Source: Saccostrea echinata (taxonomy: Eukaryota). From it: DNA of 64,000 nt. Positions 1-28,101 of this stretch are shown in pieces. The stretch covers positions 2,108,001 through 2,172,000 of the forward strand of contig NW_026889756.1 of assembly GCF_033153115.1 (NCBI RefSeq), in the 5' to 3' direction. The position numbers and the translations under genes were made by a program. The notes under the pieces are model-generated. The model saw nothing but the letters and a program-made list of their open reading frames with translations. It searched no databases and was not told the DNA's origin. Each line of letters opens with the position of its first letter. The stretch's first letter is position 1.

Positions 1-760
1 CAAAGAGTTGATTAAGCTGTTTTGTGTTAATCTTCTGAGGAGAAAATACTGGCAATGAAACATTGACTTTTGGAGGTAAGCGTCTGAACTCTTCGTTTCT
101 GGATTTGTGTGCTAGGGAGAGATCATTAAATTCAAGAGTTTTCTGCAAATCAAGAACACGTTGTTTCATTTTGGAGGTAATTTGTGTGATGATATTTTCC
201 TGTTTATTTAAAATAGACATGTGTATAGTTTTCATGTCATCAATTTCAGACTTTTGTTTGTTTACAATTATGTCAATTTCTCTGTGCCAGGTTTCTCCTT
301 GTTTGTTAACGGCTATTTTCAATTTATGATAGAGATTATCCGACTTGTCTTTTTTGTTTTTAATGTCTAATGCAATATCTCCATATTTTGGATAAATTCT
401 ACACTCAAGTTCTATCAAGTCTCTTTTTATAGCTTTTGTCTTACAGCTAAGTTTCTGAAAAATATTTAATAAACAGTGTTCTCTATGTTTACCTGAGGAG
501 ATACACGTAGAACAGACAGGAATGTCACATTTCTCACAAAACAATTGACAATTTTTAAGATGGTTTTTGCATTTTGGATTGTTGGGAGTTCTTCTTTCTG
601 AATATGGCACGACTTTGTGTCCTTTGCTTGAAGCTGAAAGATGCTCCCTTACACAGGCTTTGCAGAGGTTGGTGTAACAAACTTCGCAATGACTTTGCAC
701 TACATCTCCCTCACAAAGGTCACACCTGATGATGTCTTGAGCACAATATCGGGGATCCAT
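1..760 (-). CDS. B-box/coiled-coil TRIM-like protein (bivalve expanded family), 5' part; ORF runs off the window start
   Basis: Manual translation from ATG 760: MDPRYCAQDIIRCDLCEGDVVQSHCEVCYTNLCKACVREHL...GHKVV...CKNHLKNCQLFCEKCDIPVCSTCISSGKHREH. Two B-box zinc fingers followed by a coiled-coil region, open to position 1. Polypyrimidine tract and AG acceptor at about 793-810. Confidence 0.85.
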   Translation of the reverse strand, partial: MDPRYCAQDIIRCDLCEGDVVQSHCEVCYTNLCKACVREHLSASSKGHKVVPYSERRTPNNPKCKNHLKNCQLFCEKCDIPVCSTCISSGKHREHCLLNIFQKLSCKTKAIKRDLIELECRIYPKYGDIALDIKNKKDKSDNLYHKLKIAVNKQGETWHREIDIIVNKQKSEIDDMKTIHMSILNKQENIITQITSKMKQRVLDLQKTLEFNDLSLAHKSRNEEFRRLPPKVNVSLPVFSPQKINTKQLNQLF

Positions 761-1001
761 CACTGATGTTTAGGCCATATGCTCAGTTTTTACTGAAATA
801 AGAAAAAAAGACGATAAAAAGTTGTTTAAATGTCTGTATTTATGATAAAATATTCATAAACTTACATGTATCACTGCCTGGCTGACACATTTTTTTTCTT
901 GGAAAGCAAACTATTTAAACTATAAGACACGGTTACTTAAAGGGTATTCAACCCATTTTTGAATAACTTTGAGATTTCATTAATTTTCAAAACATATATT
1001 T

Positions 1002-8915: not shown

Positions 8916-10164
8916 CAGCATAGTGCCATAAATGAGTCAAATTTTTTAATGGCGTGCAATTATAAGCGCCGCTTCAAAACTTCGAAGTTACGTTGTAGAA
9001 AGAAAAACGATATCATATCGATTTTTTCATGATCAAAGGGAAGTAACGCTTACTGAGTTTTAATTTCCGGATTTTCGTTAGCGAATTTGATTTTGTTATT
9101 ACTCTACTTCCTTGTTTACGAAATGGCAAAACACGGCAATGAAATGTCAGACGACACTATCATAGGGTGCGTTCAGAGTTCTACCAGTAGTACCAACTTT
9201 CAATATACCAATGTTAATGTCAGAGGAGAACGGACACTTTCTCGCCTTGTTAAAAATTCGCGTAGGATAACTTTAAAGGATATAACGGCAGAATTCAACA
9301 ACAGTACACCGGTTAAAGTTTCTCGTCGCACAATACAAAGGACCCTTCACTCCATGGGCTATACAAGGCGATCTTTTCGGAAGTCTGTAGAAATTCGGGA
9401 CGTAAACAAAAAGAAACGCATAGCTTGGTGCAGAGGGAAGTTAGATTGGAATGCCAATAACCACTTGAAAAAGGTGATGTTTTCCGATGAAATGATGGTT
9501 ATTATTAAACCTGACGGAAAGTTTAAAGTATGGAGGAAGTCATCGGAAAAATGGAGACCTGAATGTTTGAGCCACTTTGCACCAATGTAGTCTGCTTTTA
9601 TTAAAATAATGGTATGGGGATGTATCACCTACTATGGGGTAGGAAGTTTAGCATTCATAAATGGAAATATGAACTCTCAGAAATATATCCAAACACTTGA
9701 TGACAATATTTGGCAGGTTGTTGTTGAACATTTTGGTAATAGTACATGGTACTTCCAAGATGACAATGCCCTATGTCATCGGTCCAATGAATCTTAAAAT
9801 TGGAAACATCAGAACAGAATTCACGGATAAGTTGGCCTTCGCAGTCTCCCGATTTGAGCCCAATCGAGAATATTTGGCTATTAATGAAAAACAAAATCAA
9901 AAACAGACTTTACCTGATCCATAATGTAAATGACTTGAAAACTCAGTTACTGAGGTCTTGGAATGAAATCCCTGTATTTTACATTCAAAGACTTTATGCA
10001 AGCCTTCCAAGAAGATGCAGAGAGGTACGGATCCAGAAAGGTGACATCACAAAATATTAGAAGGATTAGAGTTCATTAAAGAGGCTGGTAAGGAATTTAG
10101 GTTGAATTTATATGATTCAAATGGCAGCCATTAAAAAAGTTGACTCATTTATGGCACTATGTTG
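8916..10164 (+). mobile_element. Tc1-family transposon with inactivated DDE transposase
   Basis: TA target duplication (8914-8915, 10165-10166). 38-bp TIRs cagcatagtgccataaatgagtcaa.ttttttaatggc with 2 mismatches. Transposase motifs VSRRTIQRTL, VMFSDE, MVWGCI, FQDDNA, WPSQSPDLSPIENIW are split across ORFs 9087-9590, 9609-9797 and 9800-10060 by a stop and a frameshift. Confidence 0.95.
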
Positions 10165-15979: not shown

Positions 15980-17179
15980 TTATAATCGTTGCAAAACATA
16001 ATATTGAAATATTCCAAAATTGTCAACAGCTGTTGCCACGCACTGCACAACTTTATAGCCTGCAACAGCTCTATAATTAGCGGAGGAGAGGAGCACTGGA
16101 GTGTGTCCAAAAATTATCATATACCCGCCCCTTTTCACGGTTGGAAGAAGAGCAGTCAGCAGATCTTCTGCCTCTGTTGACTTCACGACTTCTGAGTTTA
16201 GAAAACGAACAAAACAGTAATCAGCCGTCCCTGGTTCTATTTTTGGCTCCATGGCATTCCCACAATGCACCTCGTCAACCCTTTGGCGGGAAATTTCCGT
16301 CATCTGCTTACTAAGATCTTGGCCTATTGTATAGCTGTCGGGAAACGCGTTTTTAAGTGTAGACAGGAAAACACCAGTTGAGCAAGCTGGGTCATAGAGT
16401 CTGGCGTTCTTTATTTTAGCGGATGCCATAAATTGAATGGTGTAATCTCTGATTCTTTCTTCACCACAACTCAGCATGACGTCAAAGGCATCATCTATCT
16501 CCCAACCCTGTGGCGGAGAACAGAGCTCCTCGTGTGTCGACTGCCTCAGTAGCGGGTATGGAAAGACTAATTCTGGCATTCCAAAAGAACTGTTCATCAC
16601 TTGGTTCATGAAATACAGTTTTTCTGATTTGTCAAATGGGTAGAAATGCACAATGACTTTGTTTTCGGTTATTCTCTGATCCACAAAGAGGCCAAGGAGC
16701 ATGTCCGCCGAGATGAAACTGCAATAGAGTTCGGGAATCTTGTTTTTGATGAAAAAATCAGAGAGGATTTTTCTTCCCAGAATTTGAACTGGACTTGGCG
16801 TTCCCGGAACAGCAATGTTGAGGTAGAACAATCCCTGGGGCAGCTCAAAGAAACTAACATCTATCCGAGTGATTGGCCTCCGACATACTTCATCCCAGCT
16901 CGCTTCTCTCTTCATGGCAACCCCAGGTTCGATTTTCTGCGCCTTATACCTGACGATCTCGTCTCTGATCGTTGTCAGAGTTTTCTTGTCCCCCACACTC
17001 CGTTCGGATTCTATCAGCGCTTGATTAAGAATATCCTCTGCCTTTTTCCAATCCCCTTTGGAAAGGTTAATCCGAATGTCAGTAAACATTTCCCGAATTT
17101 TCTCATCGTACATATTCTTAAAAATTCCATCGTATGTTGTCACGACTTTTGTAGATTTTAATGCTGGGTCCTTCTCCAT
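15980..17179 (-). CDS. Intronless class I SAM-dependent transferase, Nat/isonocardicin synthase-like 3-amino-3-carboxypropyltransferase (ACT), 399 aa
   Basis: Long uninterrupted ORF. SAM motif I LYDPACSTGVFL, motif II TIGQDLSKQM, then VHCGNA, FVRFLNSEVV, KRGGYMIIFGHTPVLL and terminal IFQYYVL. I recognise this motif series from bacterial proteins annotated as isonocardicin synthase (recall, not a search). Confidence 0.8.
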   Translation of the reverse strand: MEKDPALKSTKVVTTYDGIFKNMYDEKIREMFTDIRINLSKGDWKKAEDILNQALIESERSVGDKKTLTTIRDEIVRYKAQKIEPGVAMKREASWDEVCRRPITRIDVSFFELPQGLFYLNIAVPGTPSPVQILGRKILSDFFIKNKIPELYCSFISADMLLGLFVDQRITENKVIVHFYPFDKSEKLYFMNQVMNSSFGMPELVFPYPLLRQSTHEELCSPPQGWEIDDAFDVMLSCGEERIRDYTIQFMASAKIKNARLYDPACSTGVFLSTLKNAFPDSYTIGQDLSKQMTEISRQRVDEVHCGNAMEPKIEPGTADYCFVRFLNSEVVKSTEAEDLLTALLPTVKRGGYMIIFGHTPVLLSSANYRAVAGYKVVQCVATAVDNFGIFQYYVLQRL

Positions 17180-19926
17180 TATTAGTGTAAAACTTCTTAC
17201 CCTAGTGTGTCCTAGTGGTTGGAAAGGTGAATTATTGATAGCATCTCGCTGTACTTGAGAGATAAGCCACGTTTAGTTTGGAAATTCTGATAACGCCGCT
17301 ATCTGAAATGTGGCCGTGTTTAAATGACGAGATAATGAGGGTCACTCAAGTGTAACATAAACACGTGTAATGCCAGCATGATCATTACCGCAGCACAAGT
17401 CCTGTTGATCATCGTAAGATGGGTATTTCATTTGGTATGTAAACATTATTTTCGGTAATTTAAGCAAATCCTTTGGATAAATGACATACATCTTAACAAA
17501 AAGGGAATGTTATATGAACAGTATTGCAGTCTCCATATGCATTTTATAAAATGTGTCATCTTTCAAGTTATCAAATACAGTTGATATTTCAAACGTAGTA
17601 GTGGCCTGAGACCACTACAATGTCCCATTTTTGATACCCCTCGAAATAGAACATGTGTACTCCAAGGTTCGTGTAGTTTTCTATTTGGTGATGTCAATCT
17701 GCCGCTGGAAAATAATATTACTATCTTTATTTATGTGCAGAAAGATATTGTAGCAACAAGGATGTAAACATATCGATTTTTGTTGTTGTGTTTATGCACT
17801 GCTTATCTCTGCTTTTAACAGTTTAAGCTTAATATGATTATGTACATGATGTAGGAGCAACATCTTAAATTTTCCTTTGTAGTAATATTCTTCAGAATTA
17901 CTTTGAAATGTTTATAGTCTATTTTCAAAAAATATTATGTTGTGCAATTTTTCTTCTCGCATTGATTATTTCTAATTTCATTATATTCAAGTTCTTGTAT
18001 ATACAAGTGATATATATTAAACATGTTAAACTTCATACTTTATTTCCCTGCATTAGGAATACAATCCGTCAAATGTATTTATTCATTGCACAGTACAACT
18101 TTATAAGGGTACATTATTTATCAGTTAACTTACAAAACAAATGAGAAGACGGGTTTGTTTATGTTTCTATTAATGTGCATAGCTTCAATGCTAGTAAATG
18201 TTCTGGTTGACTGTCTTATTACAACTCTCGTGTATATGAACAGCCATTTAAGTGCCTTCAACAGGTTGGAGAGAATGCTCGAAATAGGGTATTATCAGAG
18301 AAATCGCATAATACATGTAAATTGTCCCCGATATCGGAATGTCATTGAATCAGCGAAATCGGGTATCCCGTGCAACTTTTTGTAAAAGCAAGAAAATAAA
18401 GCAAAGGCGCATGATGTCAGTTAGTGTTACTTGTACATCAGTGTCTTGGGGGTTTATTTTCATTGAACCTAATTTGCAGGTTAATCTAAAGAATTCAAAA
18501 TGACACGACTAACACATCTGGGGTAGCATTGAAGTCACGACAGCGTCATTATTTTTCAATGCCATTACCAAAACCAAATGATTACATTTTTTTTTACTTT
18601 ATTTTCTACTGATACATTCCCCAAGCTTCATTTCTAATTTTGTGAATTATTCACAAAGTGTAGAACTTTTAAGAAATTTATTCTATACCTTAAAATGTAT
18701 GGTGTCCCCTTCCCGCTAAAAATCAGACGATGCTAGAAACAATTACAATGTAGTATTGGTTTCCTATCGATATAAAATTATACAGGGACATTCGTAAAGC
18801 AGAAAAATAAAAGATTTTATGCATAGACAAGTGGGTTATGTAAGATTTAAAGACACGCATATATAAAAATCAGATTTTATTATCGGCGGAAGAAGCGATA
18901 GATCTTTATGCTTTGATAGAAAGAGCACATCTAAAAATGGTTTAATGTTTCTATTGAATAACACCTAGTATTAAGTTATTAACAAAAAACCTAATTTTAT
19001 AAAACACACTGCCTTATACTCAATCACATTTTTATGTTTCATGTTGTTTTTTTTTTTTTGGGGGGGGGGGATAACTTCTCATACGATATTCATTAATGAT
19101 TCTTAAGTTTACACTCCCCCCCCCCCTCAAAATGGGATTGCGAAAGATACATAATTTATGCAAATTGCCACTATCCTATTTTTCTATACTTCAAAATATT
19201 TATAAGAATATATTATCTTAGTTACATGTAATATTCCAGTAAATCAATTTATTCATCATACAATGTTTATAAATGTAGAAGCACAGCCCTCACACTCTTT
19301 TTTTTCTGAGAATATACTTTTGCTGTTAATTCTGACCAAAAATATTTATTCAAAGGAAACCCCCTCCCCTCCCCCTTTTTTTTAGTTTTATCTACGCAGC
19401 CCATGTAATTGATCTATATATTTATTTATTTTTAAATAAATTTATTTTTTTCTGCCTGTCAATTTTTAAACCTAACCCTTACAAAAATTCTACTTGTCAA
19501 AATTTCACTCCACCTCTCGAAATAGCTTCTTTCGAGTTTAGCGAGTTTTTATTTAGTGTGTGCGAGCGTGTAAGCCCCCCCCCTCCCCCTCCCCCCCCCC
19601 CCCCCCCCGGCAGAGACTTTTAGAAATTCAAAATGCAAAATACATCGGTCTCACGTCGGGAATGTCCGGTCAACAGAGGATTCTTACTACTCCTAGGCTG
19701 CAGGCACCTGTATTTTATGACCTGTCACAAATATGATATTTTATAAGAATTTTGCGATCAATTACTGTTCATTATCTTTACGTTGTTTATGTACAAATAC
19801 AAGATCTAACACGTTATATCGTTCTTCAACATGTGAGGGTGGGGGTGGAGCTACATGTAGCAATATAATTGACTACTCTCCTAAAAGTCTTTGACATACA
19901 AACATAGAAAAAAATTATTATTGTTA

Positions 19927-21696: not shown

Positions 21697-22593
21697 ATGC
21701 ATTGGTACTTTTTTATTCTTTGCGTCTTTTTGCTGCTGAAGGTTCTGTATTACTTTTAAATGCTAAAAAAACCCCGGTAGCAATTAAGTGATCTTTACTG
21801 TCCACTATAAATCTGGTTTTTATTTTAATCAGGTTCCTCTCACGAAAGGCTACATACCAGAGCCGGGGAGATTCCTCCGGACTTTACTAACCCTGACGTT
21901 CCATGGTGACAAACTAAAGAAACTCGAGTTCCTTACGGAATACTATTTCTACTATGGACTGTTCAAGTTTGATGCCAAGATTTACATTTTTAATCCGAAA
22001 CTAGCACAGCATGCTATATATAAACTTGAAAAGGGAGCGGAACATTATTTAGAAAATTCACCTTTAAAGAACACGTTCCTTGGATCATCACAGAAAAGTC
22101 CCGAAACAAGGCGCGCTATAGCGTCATTATTCCGAAAAACTTCAATTGAGGAACGCGCTGCTATAATGATAAGCGACATACAGAAAATGTGTACAATATT
22201 CAAGAAAGATCCGAAGGGCATCGTAAACGTCACACAATGGACTCTTCGGATGGCATTGGACATTGTCGGCCATGTCTTACTTGAACTTGATCTTAACGGT
22301 TTGGAAAAGAAGCAAGAGAAAATGATTTCTTCGATGTTGACGATTTTGCATAGATGTTATGCCATGGGAGAAATATCATCAGACAGTAAAGAGTTCTCTG
22401 ACGCAAACGAAGAATTTGATGCCATCACACAAAGGGTTTTAGAGGAAGCACTCAGCATTGATAACGTCACAATTAAGGGAAAACGACTGGTCAACTCACT
22501 GCACGACGCATGCGGATTCAGCGAAGTAAGTATAACATCTCATGCGTTACTTTAAGTTCAGTAACGTGTACATGGCAAAATCTGTATCACACT

Positions 22594-22624
<31 letters not shown>

Positions 22625-24185
22625 GATAGCTCATTTTGATCAAGGGTTGATACTAGTATGGGGTGTGATACAGATTTTTACATGTATTGTTGGGTTATTT
22701 TTATGTATTTGAAAATGATGTCAACAAGTCATGTATAAATGTACCTATAAATGTACTTTTAATAATTTCATGTGTCTTTTTTTTGTTGAATTTCCAACAT
22801 TAATTAGTCCAATGATAATACATTCAGCGATAAGAATAATGAAAATAATTATAATTAAACAAAATAATTATTTTAAATGATATGAAATTAAATTGGAATT
22901 TTAATAAACCTCAAAAACAATAGAAAAGGATCCGATCGAGGTACTCCGAATGAAAAGTACAGAGGTGTTCCAGGAAAGGTGTATTAAAGAGTGAAATAAA
23001 TGGTGATGAAACAGGGTGATGATACAGGGTTCGTGCCTGTGTTCATATCGGGGATGCAAAAAACCTGTATTATATAACAAATATCTAATAAAGTTTTTTT
23101 TAAAAATAAAATGTGATACTGAAATGTGTTCATCTTTCAATTTTTTTTCCTTTCATCTGCTCAGGCCAAAGACAACATGAAATTGTTTTTGATGGCGGGA
23201 ACCGAGACCACCGCCTCTACTATTCCTGTGGTGATGTATCTATTGGTCAAATACCCACATATACAGGTAGAAAGATCAATAAAACTAACCAAGAACAATT
23301 TAAAACATTTCAAATCGCTCATAAAATGTGCCTTTGTTCTCAATACTAGATAGATATGGTGTTATTTGTCAGTTTTTATGTATACATGTAAGTTCTTTTG
23401 AACATAAAACAGGAAGAGTTACGACAGGAAGCGGAAGAGCTCCTTGAATCTTTGGTGGCGGATCCCACCACACCTTTACCTAAGACAGAGAGCGTACTGA
23501 CCGAGGTGCTCCGATTGTACCCGATTGCACCGTTTATCAGCAGACAGAATTACGAGCCGGTAACTCTCGGTGACGTCAACCTGAAACAACATGTAAGTTT
23601 GACTGACAAACAATAATAAAAATATCCCTTTCCCTGGAAAACACTTTAATCCAGTCCTTAAAATAATGATTTTAATATTATATCTATTCAGTGATAAACT
23701 GAAGTCTTACAATTTTTATTCACTTGAGTTAATATAAGGCAGTGCTTAGCCTTCTAAAAATCAGTGATTGATGGAATTAATGTACATTTTTGCATATATT
23801 TACATGATACATCCACCCCTCATGAATTCACACTTCATTTTAGGCTGACGTCATCATATTTACTTGGGGAATTCATCGCAGCCCGCATTATTGGGATAAA
23901 GCAAAGGAATTTGTTCCCTTCCGATTTCTAAACACAAGCAAAACTTCCGGAAATATGTTCATTCCGTTCGGTGCAGGTTCTCGAGTGTGCATTGGACAGC
24001 ATCTGGCTTGGCTGGAACTGAGGCTCGCCGTAGCTATGTTGTTATATCAGTTTAAGTTTGAGCATGCGCAGGAGACACCAGAACTGAATTTTGTGGTAGA
24101 CTGGGCGCATGCTGTTGTGCATCCAGATAAAGACATGATCTTTAAAATTACACCAACACAGAACGACCCCATCACGCTCTCATGA
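21697..24185 (+). CDS. Divergent cytochrome P450, about 453 aa; exons 21697-21741, 21833-22525, 23165-23266, 23413-23592, 23844-24185
   Basis: All introns GT-AG and phase 0. N-terminal hydrophobic anchor MHWYFFILCVFLLLK (exon 1 is the least certain), I-helix AGTETT, ExxR (EVLR), PFRF as a PERF variant, heme motif FGAGSRVCIG. Confidence 0.92.
22577..22678. repeat. Small inverted-repeat element (MITE-like) in a P450 intron
   Basis: aaaatctgtatcacactccata ... tatggggtgtgatacagatttt. Confidence 0.6.
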
Positions 24186-24819
24186 CATTATATAGTGATA
24201 AAATATTGTTATCGTGTTATTTTGATGATGTCAGTGTTTGCTCTTTTTGAGTTTATTGTCTATCTGAATCAGGATTTTGTTAATAAGCGTTTGAATTGTG
24301 AACAGTACATTTAGAGTCAGATTTGATTTAAAAAAAAATACAGCATTTGATGCCACATGACTTGTTCTTATGTTTCTACAAAGTTACACTCTTTCAGATT
24401 GGCACAATTCCCAAAGCTTTATGAAATCCATTGAAATCGGTATACCGAAATAAAGATAATGAATTCAATTAAATTCTTAGACCGACTCTCTTGTTCTAAA
24501 ATATACCCTTAAATATATTTAATATTGAACTGTTTGAAAGGAGCTATGTATATGTGCAACATTCTTTCGTGTGTAAACTTGTGTAAACTTTGCAGAATAG
24601 GATATAGAGAATTTTTAGTAAAGAAACTCCGAAAAAGAAAAGACATTTTCATTTATTTTCAATTTCATAATTTAAAACACAACATATAAAACATGTTAAT
24701 AAGATGTTCAATTCAAAACCCTCACTATAACAATACAAAGAGGAAAAATGTGTCTTCACTGGACGGATTTTCACTTGAAAATAAAGCCTGGTTCACAGTT
24801 TCAGTAAAGTTTTACAGTT

Positions 24820-27800
24820 CTATAATTCTGTATTGCACAAATGGCGCACCATATCGGGGGTTTTTGTTTTGGCTACGAGATCACTCCAATTGTTATATCT
24901 GAAATACACCAAAAAAAGGACTGATCAAAATATAAGTGATAATAGAAATAAAGCAACTATCGATAATTAATGGACATATTCAACAAACCTGGTTTTCGGG
25001 TCTACCGTCATATTGTTGTAATCACTGCACACGGAGGCAGCCATACAGGAACTCAGAAGACTGTATATGGTTTCTCTTTCTGCTAAGACCTCAAGTGGCG
25101 ACATCTCACCGGAAGTCCATTGACGAATCATCCACGCAGCGTCATACGACGAGAGGAAGCCTCGACCACATCCGGTTCCCAATGGCCAGAAAGGCTTTTA
25201 AAAAACGGTTATGAATTGTGAATTTTTTTAAATAATGAGGACATTTTGAGAGTTATTTACAATCAAACTAGTAACTTAAAAATTAACTCCAAGAAATAAT
25301 GCTCATACATATTTTTTTTTCCTTTTTAAAGAAGGCTTGAACTCCATATCAAGCGTTAATACCTTCAGAAAACAACCAATAAACATTTAACATTTTACTT
25401 ACCTCTAACAGGCTATCCCCTACAAGTCCCATTAACAGTTTGTGTCCGTTCCTCACCAGAACACGTGACGCACTCTCAGAATAATACATGGCAGTAAAAT
25501 CAAAGATGGCAACGTCAGGTTCACCTCGATAATTGGTTTCACATTCTAGATCCGGAAGTAGACCGTCTGTACACACTTCCGCTACATTACAGGCGAATTT
25601 GGTTAGTTTTACTTTGTCTATGTTGTCCGGAGCTAATAATGCCTTTGCATTTGGTTGGTTGGATTTTAAAACGCCATTTTTGAGTAAGCTTTGTTTTAAA
25701 GCAGTCATCACAAAATAATGTGTTTCGCCTTTAAAATAAACACAGTTCTCCAGCAGAATGTCTTTCTTGTTCACCAGATTGTGGAAATGCTCAGGTTTTC
25801 CCCATACGGCTAATCCCCCCAGTTCCTGAACCTTGGCCTCTTGGTTTGTATATTTCCGTTTAAAGTTTATGGTAACTGCTATTGCTAGGGGCCCACGTAT
25901 TTCTTTCCGAACAAAACCTGTAGATAAATTTATATTTTTACTTAATAAAGACATGTACAGTTTTGCACAAAAGTAAACTAGATCTTGGTTATCTGGATAT
26001 CAATGAAGTGTAATCCCAGACAATGAATTTGTAAAATGTACTTTTATTTCATACACACCCGGTAGCGTTTCGCCTTTTCCGTCTGCTCCAATAATGACGG
26101 AGAATTGATAATCAGATAAAGGGTGGTCTTCAGGTGTACACCGACATCGCCAACCCACTGTAAGAAAATGAACAAAAAATACTCATCAGTTTGCATTTCT
26201 TGACAACCATGTCTACACTTTAAATTTTCTGAAAACAGTCTCCCAGCACTAGAATGTATCAAAATGTACACAAACATGGTGTCCACAATATTCATTTCAT
26301 TGAATGATAGATGACAAAATCGTATTATTTCGTCAGAATTTTAATGTAAACGCAGTACTTCTACTTTTAATGTAAACATTCCCTGTCATTTTTTTAACAT
26401 AAACCTAAGAATTTATAAATGATTTAACTTAATAGAGATCTTGCATTACTGACTCTACACGAATTTGCTGATCTTACCGTCTGCATTATCAACAGGCGGA
26501 TCCAACAGTCCATCATACGCCACATTTGTGTGCACTTCCACCCCAAGTAACAGCGCAACTTTAAGTAAAATACTTTGTAGTCTCCGGATACCTGATAGAG
26601 AAATCAATAGGTTAATTAGGACTGAAACTAAATCATTGCAATGAATACTGGTGTTTGTGAGCAGCTCCTCCCCCACCCCTTTTACATACATCCCGGTCCC
26701 AGGGAATTTTTAAAGTTGTTTGTTTTAAATTGTTATAGTTTCAAGATTAAAAAAAATAGAAAAATCAGTGAAAAATAATACTTTTTTATTTAAAAAAACA
26801 AACAAACGAACAAAAAACCATGGTGCCCACCATTTGGAAAGGTATACCCCCCTCCCTCAAAGATGAAAACATTTACACTTTGGCAAAGGTGTTTTATTTG
26901 TTTTAAAAAATCAAGTGTGTTAATATAACACAATTTTTACTTACTGATGTGACTTATTCCTCCGACACAAAACTTTGAAAACAATTCCTTTGCTCCTAGA
27001 TTCTTCAGGTCCTCGATGACAAACGGCCAGAGGTGAAGGGTGTTGTGACGGGAAAAAGAACAGCGCTTCTCCATAACAACCACTATGTATCCTAGCAACG
27101 CAACTTCAATGGCGGTTCGAAGGCCACATGGTCCGGCACCAATAACTAAAATCTTTAATAAAAAGTACAAGCATTTAGAAAAGAAATATCTCACGAGCTT
27201 AAAACATAAAAACTGAAAAGAAATGAGGCAGTAAATCACGAATGCTGAATTTGTACGAACGTCGATGAGGACAAGAGAAATAACTATAAAATAGTCGTAA
27301 ACATCCGGAAAATCTGAAGACGTTAAATCACGGTGAAAAACTGCAGGAAACAGTTTTTCGTACACTGGATGGAATTAAAAAGTCATGATGGGGTACAACT
27401 GGTATTAATACTTTTTTACGACCTTCAATAATTTTTCAATTATGATAAAAAAAACTCAATATTTGATGTATTATTACGAAAAAAATCGATCAATAAAATT
27501 TGACAAATATACATGTAAAATGTTGCTGTTGTGCCATAAATATGTTGGTTTCGTTAGCTCATCATGTATTTCCGCTACAATCTGATTATAATTGCATCTT
27601 TTACTTTGTTCCCCAATCGCCTGACATTTTTATTTTATTTTAAAGACATTCCAATATTTCTTTCAAAATGACCCTATGATTCATTCCTGTGATTATAATG
27701 TAAAAATGTATAGATACATAAATAATTAATAAATCGAGTGACATTTTTGTTTTATTTTTAAGAAATTCCAGCATATCTTTCAAAACGAACCTATGATTTA

Positions 27801-28101
27801 TTCAAGTGATTATAATGTAAAAATCTATAGATATAATTATAATTGAATAATTTGTACTTACCTTTGCGTGTTGACAGCCTCGATTGTTCTGAAAGACCTC
27901 AACGTTTCGTTTTCTGGTCAGTTTGCTCAAAAGTGGCCTGGCGCGCCATGACGTCACTTTAGAGGAGAAATGTTCTATCAGCTCCAATCTATTTTTGATG
28001 TTTTTCAAGTCCAGTTCGTAACAGAGGGAATCAAAATATTCCAAAATGTTTCCACAATTGTCTGTTTTCATGAACTTTTCAAAAATCTCGTTTGCATTCA
28101 T
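24820..28101 (-). CDS. MICAL: MICAL-family FAD monooxygenase, monooxygenase domain only, about 486 aa; exons 28101-27862, 27152-26945, 26591-26478, 26157-26059, 25917-25403, 25194-24989, 24898-24820
   Basis: Frame-consistent GT-AG exons give [82 protein letters not shown]...[15 protein letters not shown] on the - strand at about 24652-24657. This is a family assignment, not an orthology call. Confidence 0.9.

Follow-up and report, generated by a model that had tools for sequence, protein, structure and literature searches.

The oyster Saccostrea echinata carries an intact, spliced MICAL paralogue that has been cut to its FAD monooxygenase (MO) domain; we propose, with a probability of about 0.5, that it serves as an always-unlocked NADPH/O2 monooxygenase acting on a substrate other than F-actin. 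MICALs are flavin monooxygenases with a protein substrate: the MO domain binds FAD, is reduced by NADPH and activates O2, and in full-length MICAL1 the coiled coil blocks the MO domain. The gene described here (the MO-only MICAL) lies in a 64,000-nucleotide stretch of contig NW_026889756.1 (C7 below), positions 2,108,001 to 2,172,000, the whole of which is called the window.

Gene structure and spliced contigs of the MO-only MICAL

The window copy consists of seven minus-strand exons, which join into 1461 nt encoding 486 aa and one stop without a frameshift, and GT..AG borders are present in 6/6 introns. Its features are given below in window coordinates; the second copy is another MO-only gene of the same genome.

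27862..28101, minus strand: exon 1, ATG at 28101; N-terminal helical part, aa 1-80; 211/240 nt identical to the second copy
26945..27152, minus strand: exon 2, GxGxxG FAD motif and NADPH-side basic residues; 189/208 nt identical to the second copy, with 3 amino-acid differences
26478..26591, minus strand: exon 3, joints seen in contigs
26059..26157, minus strand: exon 4, DG motif with the Asp kept (GADG)
25403..25917, minus strand: exon 5, PF25413 Rossman_Mical (E 2.4e-42); rewritten segment aa 250-281; GD motif
24989..25194, minus strand: exon 6, PFWP motif (F394/W395, equal to human F399/W400); second rewritten loop aa 436-449
24820..24898, minus strand: exon 7, stop TAG at 24822-24820; a copy-specific contig reaches 24707
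24652..24657, minus strand: candidate polyadenylation signal AATAAA, a sequence motif

An earlier reading of this DNA, made from the sequence alone (the sequence-only reading), had claimed that the gene stops just after the MO domain, and this was confirmed: the TAG closes the 486-aa frame five codons after VRHL, and contigs read through it into the 3' UTR. The exon 7 counterpart in the canonical MICAL of the oyster extends further and is followed by a CH exon. The stop of the opposing P450 gene, previously put about 630 bp away, ends at 24185; the two stops are separated by 634 bp and the genes lie tail-to-tail. The polyadenylation signal named in that reading is present as an AATAAA starting at 24657, but it sits in AT-rich DNA beyond the reach of every contig and is therefore kept as a candidate only.

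The evidence for splicing consists of assembled contigs from runs presumed to be RNA, used here for their exon joints and not for expression level, strand or ends. Joints at all six introns were seen in these contigs (four runs, two samples, two studies). Contigs specific to the window copy (runs X1 and X2) cover only two joints, 5/6 and 6/7, and extend 113 nt beyond the stop; in one X1/X2 example, exon 6 showed 0 differences from the window copy vs. 4 from the second copy. The source contigs for joints 1/2 and 2/3, which were placed on both copies, match the second copy, and run X3 contains a 1637-nt second-copy contig that is spliced across all six introns and extends ~200 nt into the 3' UTR. 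Splicing onward to CH or LIM exons would have contradicted the sequence-only reading, and among the joints listed from the four runs none leaves exon 7. The NCBI model of the window copy (XP_061171065.1) has 340 aa and lacks exons 1 and 2. We consider the 486-aa form to be the likely product of the window copy, because exons 1 and 2 are open, well spliced and conserved with the second copy.

Absence of CH, LIM and bMERB

A MICAL-type FAD monooxygenase domain is present in the MO-only MICAL, as the PF25413 match indicates, and the second copy matched MICAL3 in the PDB at E 1.2e-154. To the claim that CH and LIM exons are absent, including beyond the P450, we applied tblastn with the oyster's own MICAL C-terminus against the window, C7:1.96-2.11 Mb (150 kb left of the window) and C7:4.52-4.65 Mb (130 kb surrounding the second copy). 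No CH, LIM or bMERB was detected in this area outside the canonical MICAL. The oyster's own LIM matched the canonical gene only by tblastn (other matches, E>=0.35), a genome-wide CH-exon search gave seven matches, the sole one on this contig being the canonical MICAL, and PF12130 (bMERB) matches on this contig were likewise limited to that gene. Hidden CH/LIM exons beyond the P450 were thus ruled out by the tblastn, Pfam and genome-wide CH-exon searches. The best match outside the canonical gene, a weak CH-like one (22263-22123, E 0.02), is antisense within a P450 exon; Pfam recognised nothing there at E<=10, and the match was attributed to chance. Decayed fragments of canonical MICAL middle exons, which the same tblastn also matched, lie at C7:2056196-2060721 (+), between the canonical gene and the window, with 67-89% identity. 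In MICAL2, the C-terminal coiled coil/bMERB is absent. The MICAL family is defined by an MO domain with LIM, CH and a C-terminal region (PMC3305314), and the MO-only MICAL falls outside this definition despite its MICAL descent, fold and cofactor sites; pending an assay, it should not be classed as an F-actin monooxygenase.

Copies in the oyster genome and selection

Genome searches with exons 5 and 2 recovered three loci, all on C7: the window copy, the second MO-only copy and the canonical MICAL. The second MO-only copy (XP_061171200.1; 485 aa; C7:4.577-4.581 Mb), 2.4 Mb away, shares the exon layout of the window copy and has its stop one codon earlier. The canonical MICAL (XP_061171175.1; 2134 aa; C7:1.98-2.02 Mb) contains CH and bMERB domains recognised by Pfam as well as a LIM-like stretch. 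It ends about 111 kb from the window copy on the opposite strand, which answers the question raised in the sequence-only reading of whether a canonical copy exists elsewhere. The exon breaks of the MO-only MICAL match those of the canonical gene, whose MO domain is ~54% identical to it over exon 5.

The dN/dS ratio, also proposed as a check, was 0.098 overall between the two MO-only copies at dS 0.28 (Nei-Gojobori), with values of 0.056 over aa 81-485 and 0.27 over aa 1-80. By this codon comparison, the MO-only copies are under purifying selection and not in decay. We rejected the idea that the second copy is a haplotype duplicate or an assembly artefact, because dS is 0.28 and the introns are about 68-83% similar. 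A higher rate of evolution in the window copy was also considered (branch lengths, 0.065 vs. 0.002) and set aside, as support on the polarising differences is weak: in the 29 differences between the copies, the outgroups side with the second copy in 10, with the window copy in 6 and are ambiguous in 13.

Conserved core and rewritten docking face

The MO-only MICAL was compared with a reference set of 92 long MICAL rows (Owenia excluded; CH not confirmed in each), in which 204 positions are at least 80% conserved. Three regions were defined as those protected by F-actin in HDX of human MICAL1 (PMC11557892). In these regions, 16 of the 37 conserved positions were changed in the MO-only MICAL, vs. 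27/125 elsewhere. The FAD motifs, described as intact in the sequence-only reading, had 3/42 conserved positions changed and kept W395. Comparing the F-actin-protected regions with all else (16/37 vs. 30/167) gave a Fisher p of 0.0015, in a test that is not blind, since the segment had been flagged beforehand, and for which the bounds of the beta11-alpha11-beta12 region are approximate. The oyster canonical MICAL has 0 changes in the FAD motifs, 1/37 in the F-actin-protected regions and 6 elsewhere. Three of the 92 long MICAL rows have at least 13 such changes, i.e., the same skew occurs in some divergent full-length MICALs, and the skew was not significant in three limpet rows (p 0.05-0.34). 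A conserved docking-face sequence was not found in the MO-only MICAL by this comparison, which is a sequence test with approximate region bounds.

In the most protected actin region, 11 conserved positions are rewritten. The sequence-only reading had contrasted the changed segment with a conserved one given as VEEISGVAFIFNQKFF, which we found letter for letter in the oyster canonical MICAL; the contrast is thus real. Of the 32 codons of aa 250-281, 7 show a synonymous difference between the two copies and none a non-synonymous one; the loop 436-449 has zero synonymous differences between them and is thus uninformative on selection. P0002, a relative described below, has derived states in the rewritten segment in common with the oyster copies, and the new sequence therefore looks held rather than drifting. 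Mapped by alignment, human V261, I264 and Q267 are L, W and P in the MO-only MICAL, so that the human contact residues I264 and Q267 are among those replaced, and human K142 is E. Human F399/W400 (W395 being the stacking Trp), G150, R233 and E257 are kept, as are 6/7 proposed NADPH-side residues, 8/10 basic-patch residues (lists from PMC3645671) and the DG-motif Asp. Six changes lie in or next to segments around the flavin ring (positions 118, 279, 282, 284, 294 and 402). The predicted model of the second copy had a pLDDT of 90.7, with values <50 only at 257-260, and a Foldseek TM of 0.96 against MICAL3 (6ici). On the MO domain of human MICAL1, the coiled coil and F-actin share overlapping sites (PMC11557892).

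Compared with known systems, the MO-only gene has the whole MO domain in common with human MICAL1/2/3, Drosophila Mical and oyster XP_061171175.1, at about 50% identity, together with the FAD motifs and F399/W400. It differs from them in the absence of CH, LIM and bMERB, in the rewritten actin/coiled-coil face and in its long branch. Engineered MO-only constructs of MICAL (PDB 2bry, 2bra) have nearly the same boundaries (about 485 aa) and, like the oyster gene, no autoinhibition; however, the oyster gene is natural, under selection and changed on the docking face, and it keeps the DG Asp that is absent from MICAL1. The p-hydroxybenzoate hydroxylase-type flavin monooxygenases resemble the MO-only gene in fold class, NADPH/FAD/O2 chemistry and the stand-alone catalytic domain, but at 13-18% identity and TM 0.37-0.48 they are remote from it, and the gene is clearly MICAL-derived.

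Relatives and age of the MO-only lineage

Of 385 BLAST rows, 26 combined an MO match that extended to the end of the domain with a short tail, and several of these are isoform or truncated models of normal MICALs. The credible CH-less animal relatives are P0002, two Patella proteins (XP_050390831.1 and KAK6170452.1), one Lottia protein (ESO89320.1) and one Owenia protein (CAH1793194.1). Like the oyster gene, these have an MO domain without CH by Pfam, except that KAK6170452.1 was called CH-less from its length and its cluster. P0002 (503 aa) is 56% identical to the MO-only MICAL and has the same architecture, and the Owenia protein has a repetitive tail. The other CH-less MICAL-type proteins, all of them gene models, are changed at the same face as the oyster gene but with different substitutions.

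An IQ-TREE mixture-model tree was built from 27 rows selected out of 104; in it, the oyster MO-only pair grouped with P0002 at 100/99, and all seven CH-less rows formed one group at 94/98. When the rewritten columns were removed (19 rows), the P0002 link remained at 99/97 and the wider CH-less group dropped to 60/88; a single origin of all CH-less forms is thus not established. A recent offshoot of the oyster's canonical MICAL was rejected by the AU test (p 0.0004), with the caveat that long branches pull on this test. As judged from these trees, in which long branches may pull, the MO-only lineage is old. The Atlas also contains clusters that have the MICAL Rossmann domain but lack a common CH, most often from oomycetes and diatoms; stand-alone MICAL-type domains therefore exist beyond the oyster gene. 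No named bivalve orthologue of the MO-only gene was present among the 120-150 matches listed, while relatives of the neighbouring ACT gene are widespread. A search for synteny in other species gave 0/44 stretches in a metagenome scan and one marginal locus (1/35) in a prokaryote scan. No prior description of an MO-only animal MICAL was found in the literature outside subscription journals.

Neighbouring genes

The genes next to the MO-only MICAL are as follows.

15980..17179, minus strand: isonocardicin-synthase-like aminocarboxypropyl transferase (ACT), single exon, 399 aa; PDB 8zhu, E 6.6e-39
17378..17434, plus strand: P450 exon 1, 19 hydrophobic codons; joint 17434/21833 in run X3
21833-22525, 23165-23266, 23413-23592, 23844-24185, plus strand: P450 exons 2-5; 457-aa open frame

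The P450 and ACT ATGs are head-to-head and 198 bp apart (17180-17377), a spacing that suggests a shared two-way promoter. The MO-only MICAL is physically linked to this pair, as its stop is adjacent to that of the P450 (634 bp) and it lies 7.6 kb from the ACT start. The ACT was placed by tree, and its mollusc relatives, named in scallops, clams, ark shell, pearl oyster and abalone, are 46-80% identical. The P450 was not placed more closely by PDB and Atlas searches. Its hydrophobic exon 1 and the proline-rich stretch after it resemble a membrane anchor, and exon 1 is retained in the copy on contig C16.

The bursatellin/oxazinin (bur-ox) cluster of molluscs comprises ACT, P450, NRPS and two FMOs (Venugopalan and Schmidt, PMC11869996); in that paper, the NRPS reductase and ACT activity are confirmed in vitro and the oxidase steps are left unassigned. 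The word 'MICAL' occurs 0 times in the main text of PMC11869996 and in passages of its preprint and of PMC12833800. Adjacent act-like and p450 genes are found in both the published cluster (PMC11869996) and the oyster and, judging from family and pairing, the window ACT and P450 are probably orthologues of the published act and p450. In this assembly, the bur-ox set is split over two contigs: the NRPS is a 1595-aa single-exon formyl-A-T-R gene at C9:53402978-53407762 (-), and FMO-like (PF00743) matches lie ~19 and ~26 kb from it (C9:53.427-53.435 Mb), the nearer one with stops and probably broken. The oyster thus differs from the published cluster in having its set on two contigs and a MICAL-derived gene abutting the P450. 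The bur-ox P450 is predicted to be globular (PMC11869996), whereas the oyster P450 has a hydrophobic first exon, a comparison made by description only. The second MO-only copy has no PF00743 match and, by description, the PF00743 matches beside the NRPS on C9 fit the described FMOs better. Another isonocardicin-synthase-like gene (C4:1483107-1484255, +), 39% identical, belongs to a separate mollusc-wide clade, and no oxidase was recognised near it among long ORFs within about 45 kb.

At C16:9.563-9.596 Mb, a broken P450 duplicate is followed tail-to-tail by MO exon 6-7 remnants, with no ACT match. The dS of this P450 duplicate is about 0.54 (138 synonymous sites, a rough value). Because this exceeds the 0.28 between the MO copies, the P450-MO adjacency is likely to predate the divergence of the two MO copies, and the position beside the P450 is likely to be the older one. 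No ACT or P450 match was found around the second MO-only copy within C7:4.56-4.61 Mb, yet that copy is conserved and spliced.

Possible function and alternative explanations

From established MICAL chemistry, NADPH would reduce the FAD of the MO-only MICAL and O2 would be activated. With no coiled coil, there would be neither autoinhibition nor a Rab-type switch, and the enzyme would be always available, although probably slow without substrate owing to the DG Asp. The rewritten face and the six changes around the flavin ring may define a new partner, which would replace F-actin as the trigger of turnover. Because of the neighbouring genes, the best named substrate candidate would be a tyrosine-derived bursatellin/oxazinin intermediate; a methionine of another protein is equally open. 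The presence of a canonical MICAL that could do the actin job favours a substrate other than F-actin. Against this, the face also binds the coiled coil and LIM, and losing these domains could by itself leave it free to change. Substitutions are also accepted more readily at the surface than in the core. Of the neofunctionalisation advanced in the sequence-only reading, the truncation, the canonical copy elsewhere, the purifying selection and the changed segment on the F-actin-protected surface, which agrees with a new function, all stand; the loss of CH and LIM alone, however, does not imply a new substrate, because the MO domain alone binds and oxidises F-actin (PMC9982024).

It is possible, with a smaller but appreciable chance, that the MO-only MICAL is still an F-actin methionine oxidase, constitutive and unlocalised, and that its surface changed because contacts with the coiled coil and LIM no longer constrain it. 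F-actin binding requires no more than the MO domain, and the presence of CH makes little difference to kcat (PMC9982024), the fold is unchanged in the model of the second copy, the basic patch (8/10) and G150, R233, E257 and F399/W400 are kept, and the overlap of the coiled-coil and actin sites (PMC11557892) fits such a release. However, 11 conserved positions of the most protected region carry new residues (I to W and Q to P among them), identically in both copies, and an unregulated actin depolymeriser would probably be costly. A dedicated NADPH oxidase releasing H2O2 for defence, signalling or the neighbouring P450 appears improbable. MICAL MO yields H2O2 without substrate (PMC9982024), isolated MICAL1 MO is ~200-fold more efficient at H2O2 production than full-length MICAL1 (PMC11557892), and the inhibitory domains are absent here. 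Nevertheless, it is the loss of the DG-motif Asp that gives MICAL-1 its high basal H2O2 output, and restoring it lowers basal activity 12-fold (PMC5772675); this Asp is kept in the oyster gene, and a pure oxidase would need no conserved new surface. The suggestion of a small-molecule hydroxylase or H2O2 generator in the sequence-only reading therefore fares unevenly: the hydroxylase gains bur-ox-like neighbours as context, and the H2O2 generator is weakened because the Asp is kept.

The least probable of these explanations is that the gene lacks a function of its own, being a duplicate in decay or truncated at its 5' end, or an artefact of annotation. This would agree with the 340-aa NCBI model that lacks exons 1 and 2, with joints 1/2 and 2/3 having no copy-specific contig among those listed, with the faster evolution of exon 1 (dN/dS 0.27), and with the decayed MICAL fragments in the region and the C16 duplicate, which did decay. 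The open frame and GT..AG borders across all seven exons, the overall dN/dS of 0.098, the spliced copy-specific contigs, the 56%-identical relative with the same architecture and the rejection of a recent origin from the canonical gene (AU p 0.0004) argue against it.

Within the preferred reading, a monooxygenase with a substrate other than F-actin, we assign about a third of the probability to a bur-ox intermediate. The full proposal, in which the MO-only MICAL would be an overlooked tailoring enzyme in the bursatellin/oxazinin pathway of the oyster, drawn from an old lophotrochozoan CH-less MICAL family, is accordingly rather doubtful. The second copy is conserved with no ACT or P450 nearby, the proximity of the canonical MICAL could account for the location, and the matches listed include no named bivalve orthologue, though ACT is widespread. 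If it were true, a cytoskeletal enzyme would have turned back into a small-molecule oxygenase and been recruited to an animal natural-product gene cluster. Whether MICALs have other direct substrates is described as an open question in PMC5772675. A natural, selected MO-only MICAL with a rewritten face offers a ready test of the actin specificity of MICALs, with the oyster's own canonical MO domain as the matched control, and it represents a new candidate oxidase next to an ACT-P450 pair in a farmed food animal. Short proteins of this kind that are annotated as 'F-actin monooxygenase' may be mislabelled.

Other features of the window

A B-box (TRIM-like) gene array occupies window 2-769 (-) and C7:1.99-2.11 Mb, between the canonical MICAL and the ACT-P450-MO group. 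A Tc1/mariner-type transposase is present in pieces at 9057-10060 (+; PF01498). Small, probably secreted genes occur as tandem duplicate pairs at 41377-43010 and 51238-52716 (+) and at 49771-50028 and 59000-59284 (-), and those on the plus strand gave weak DAN/Spaetzle cystine-knot matches, below the Pfam cut-off.
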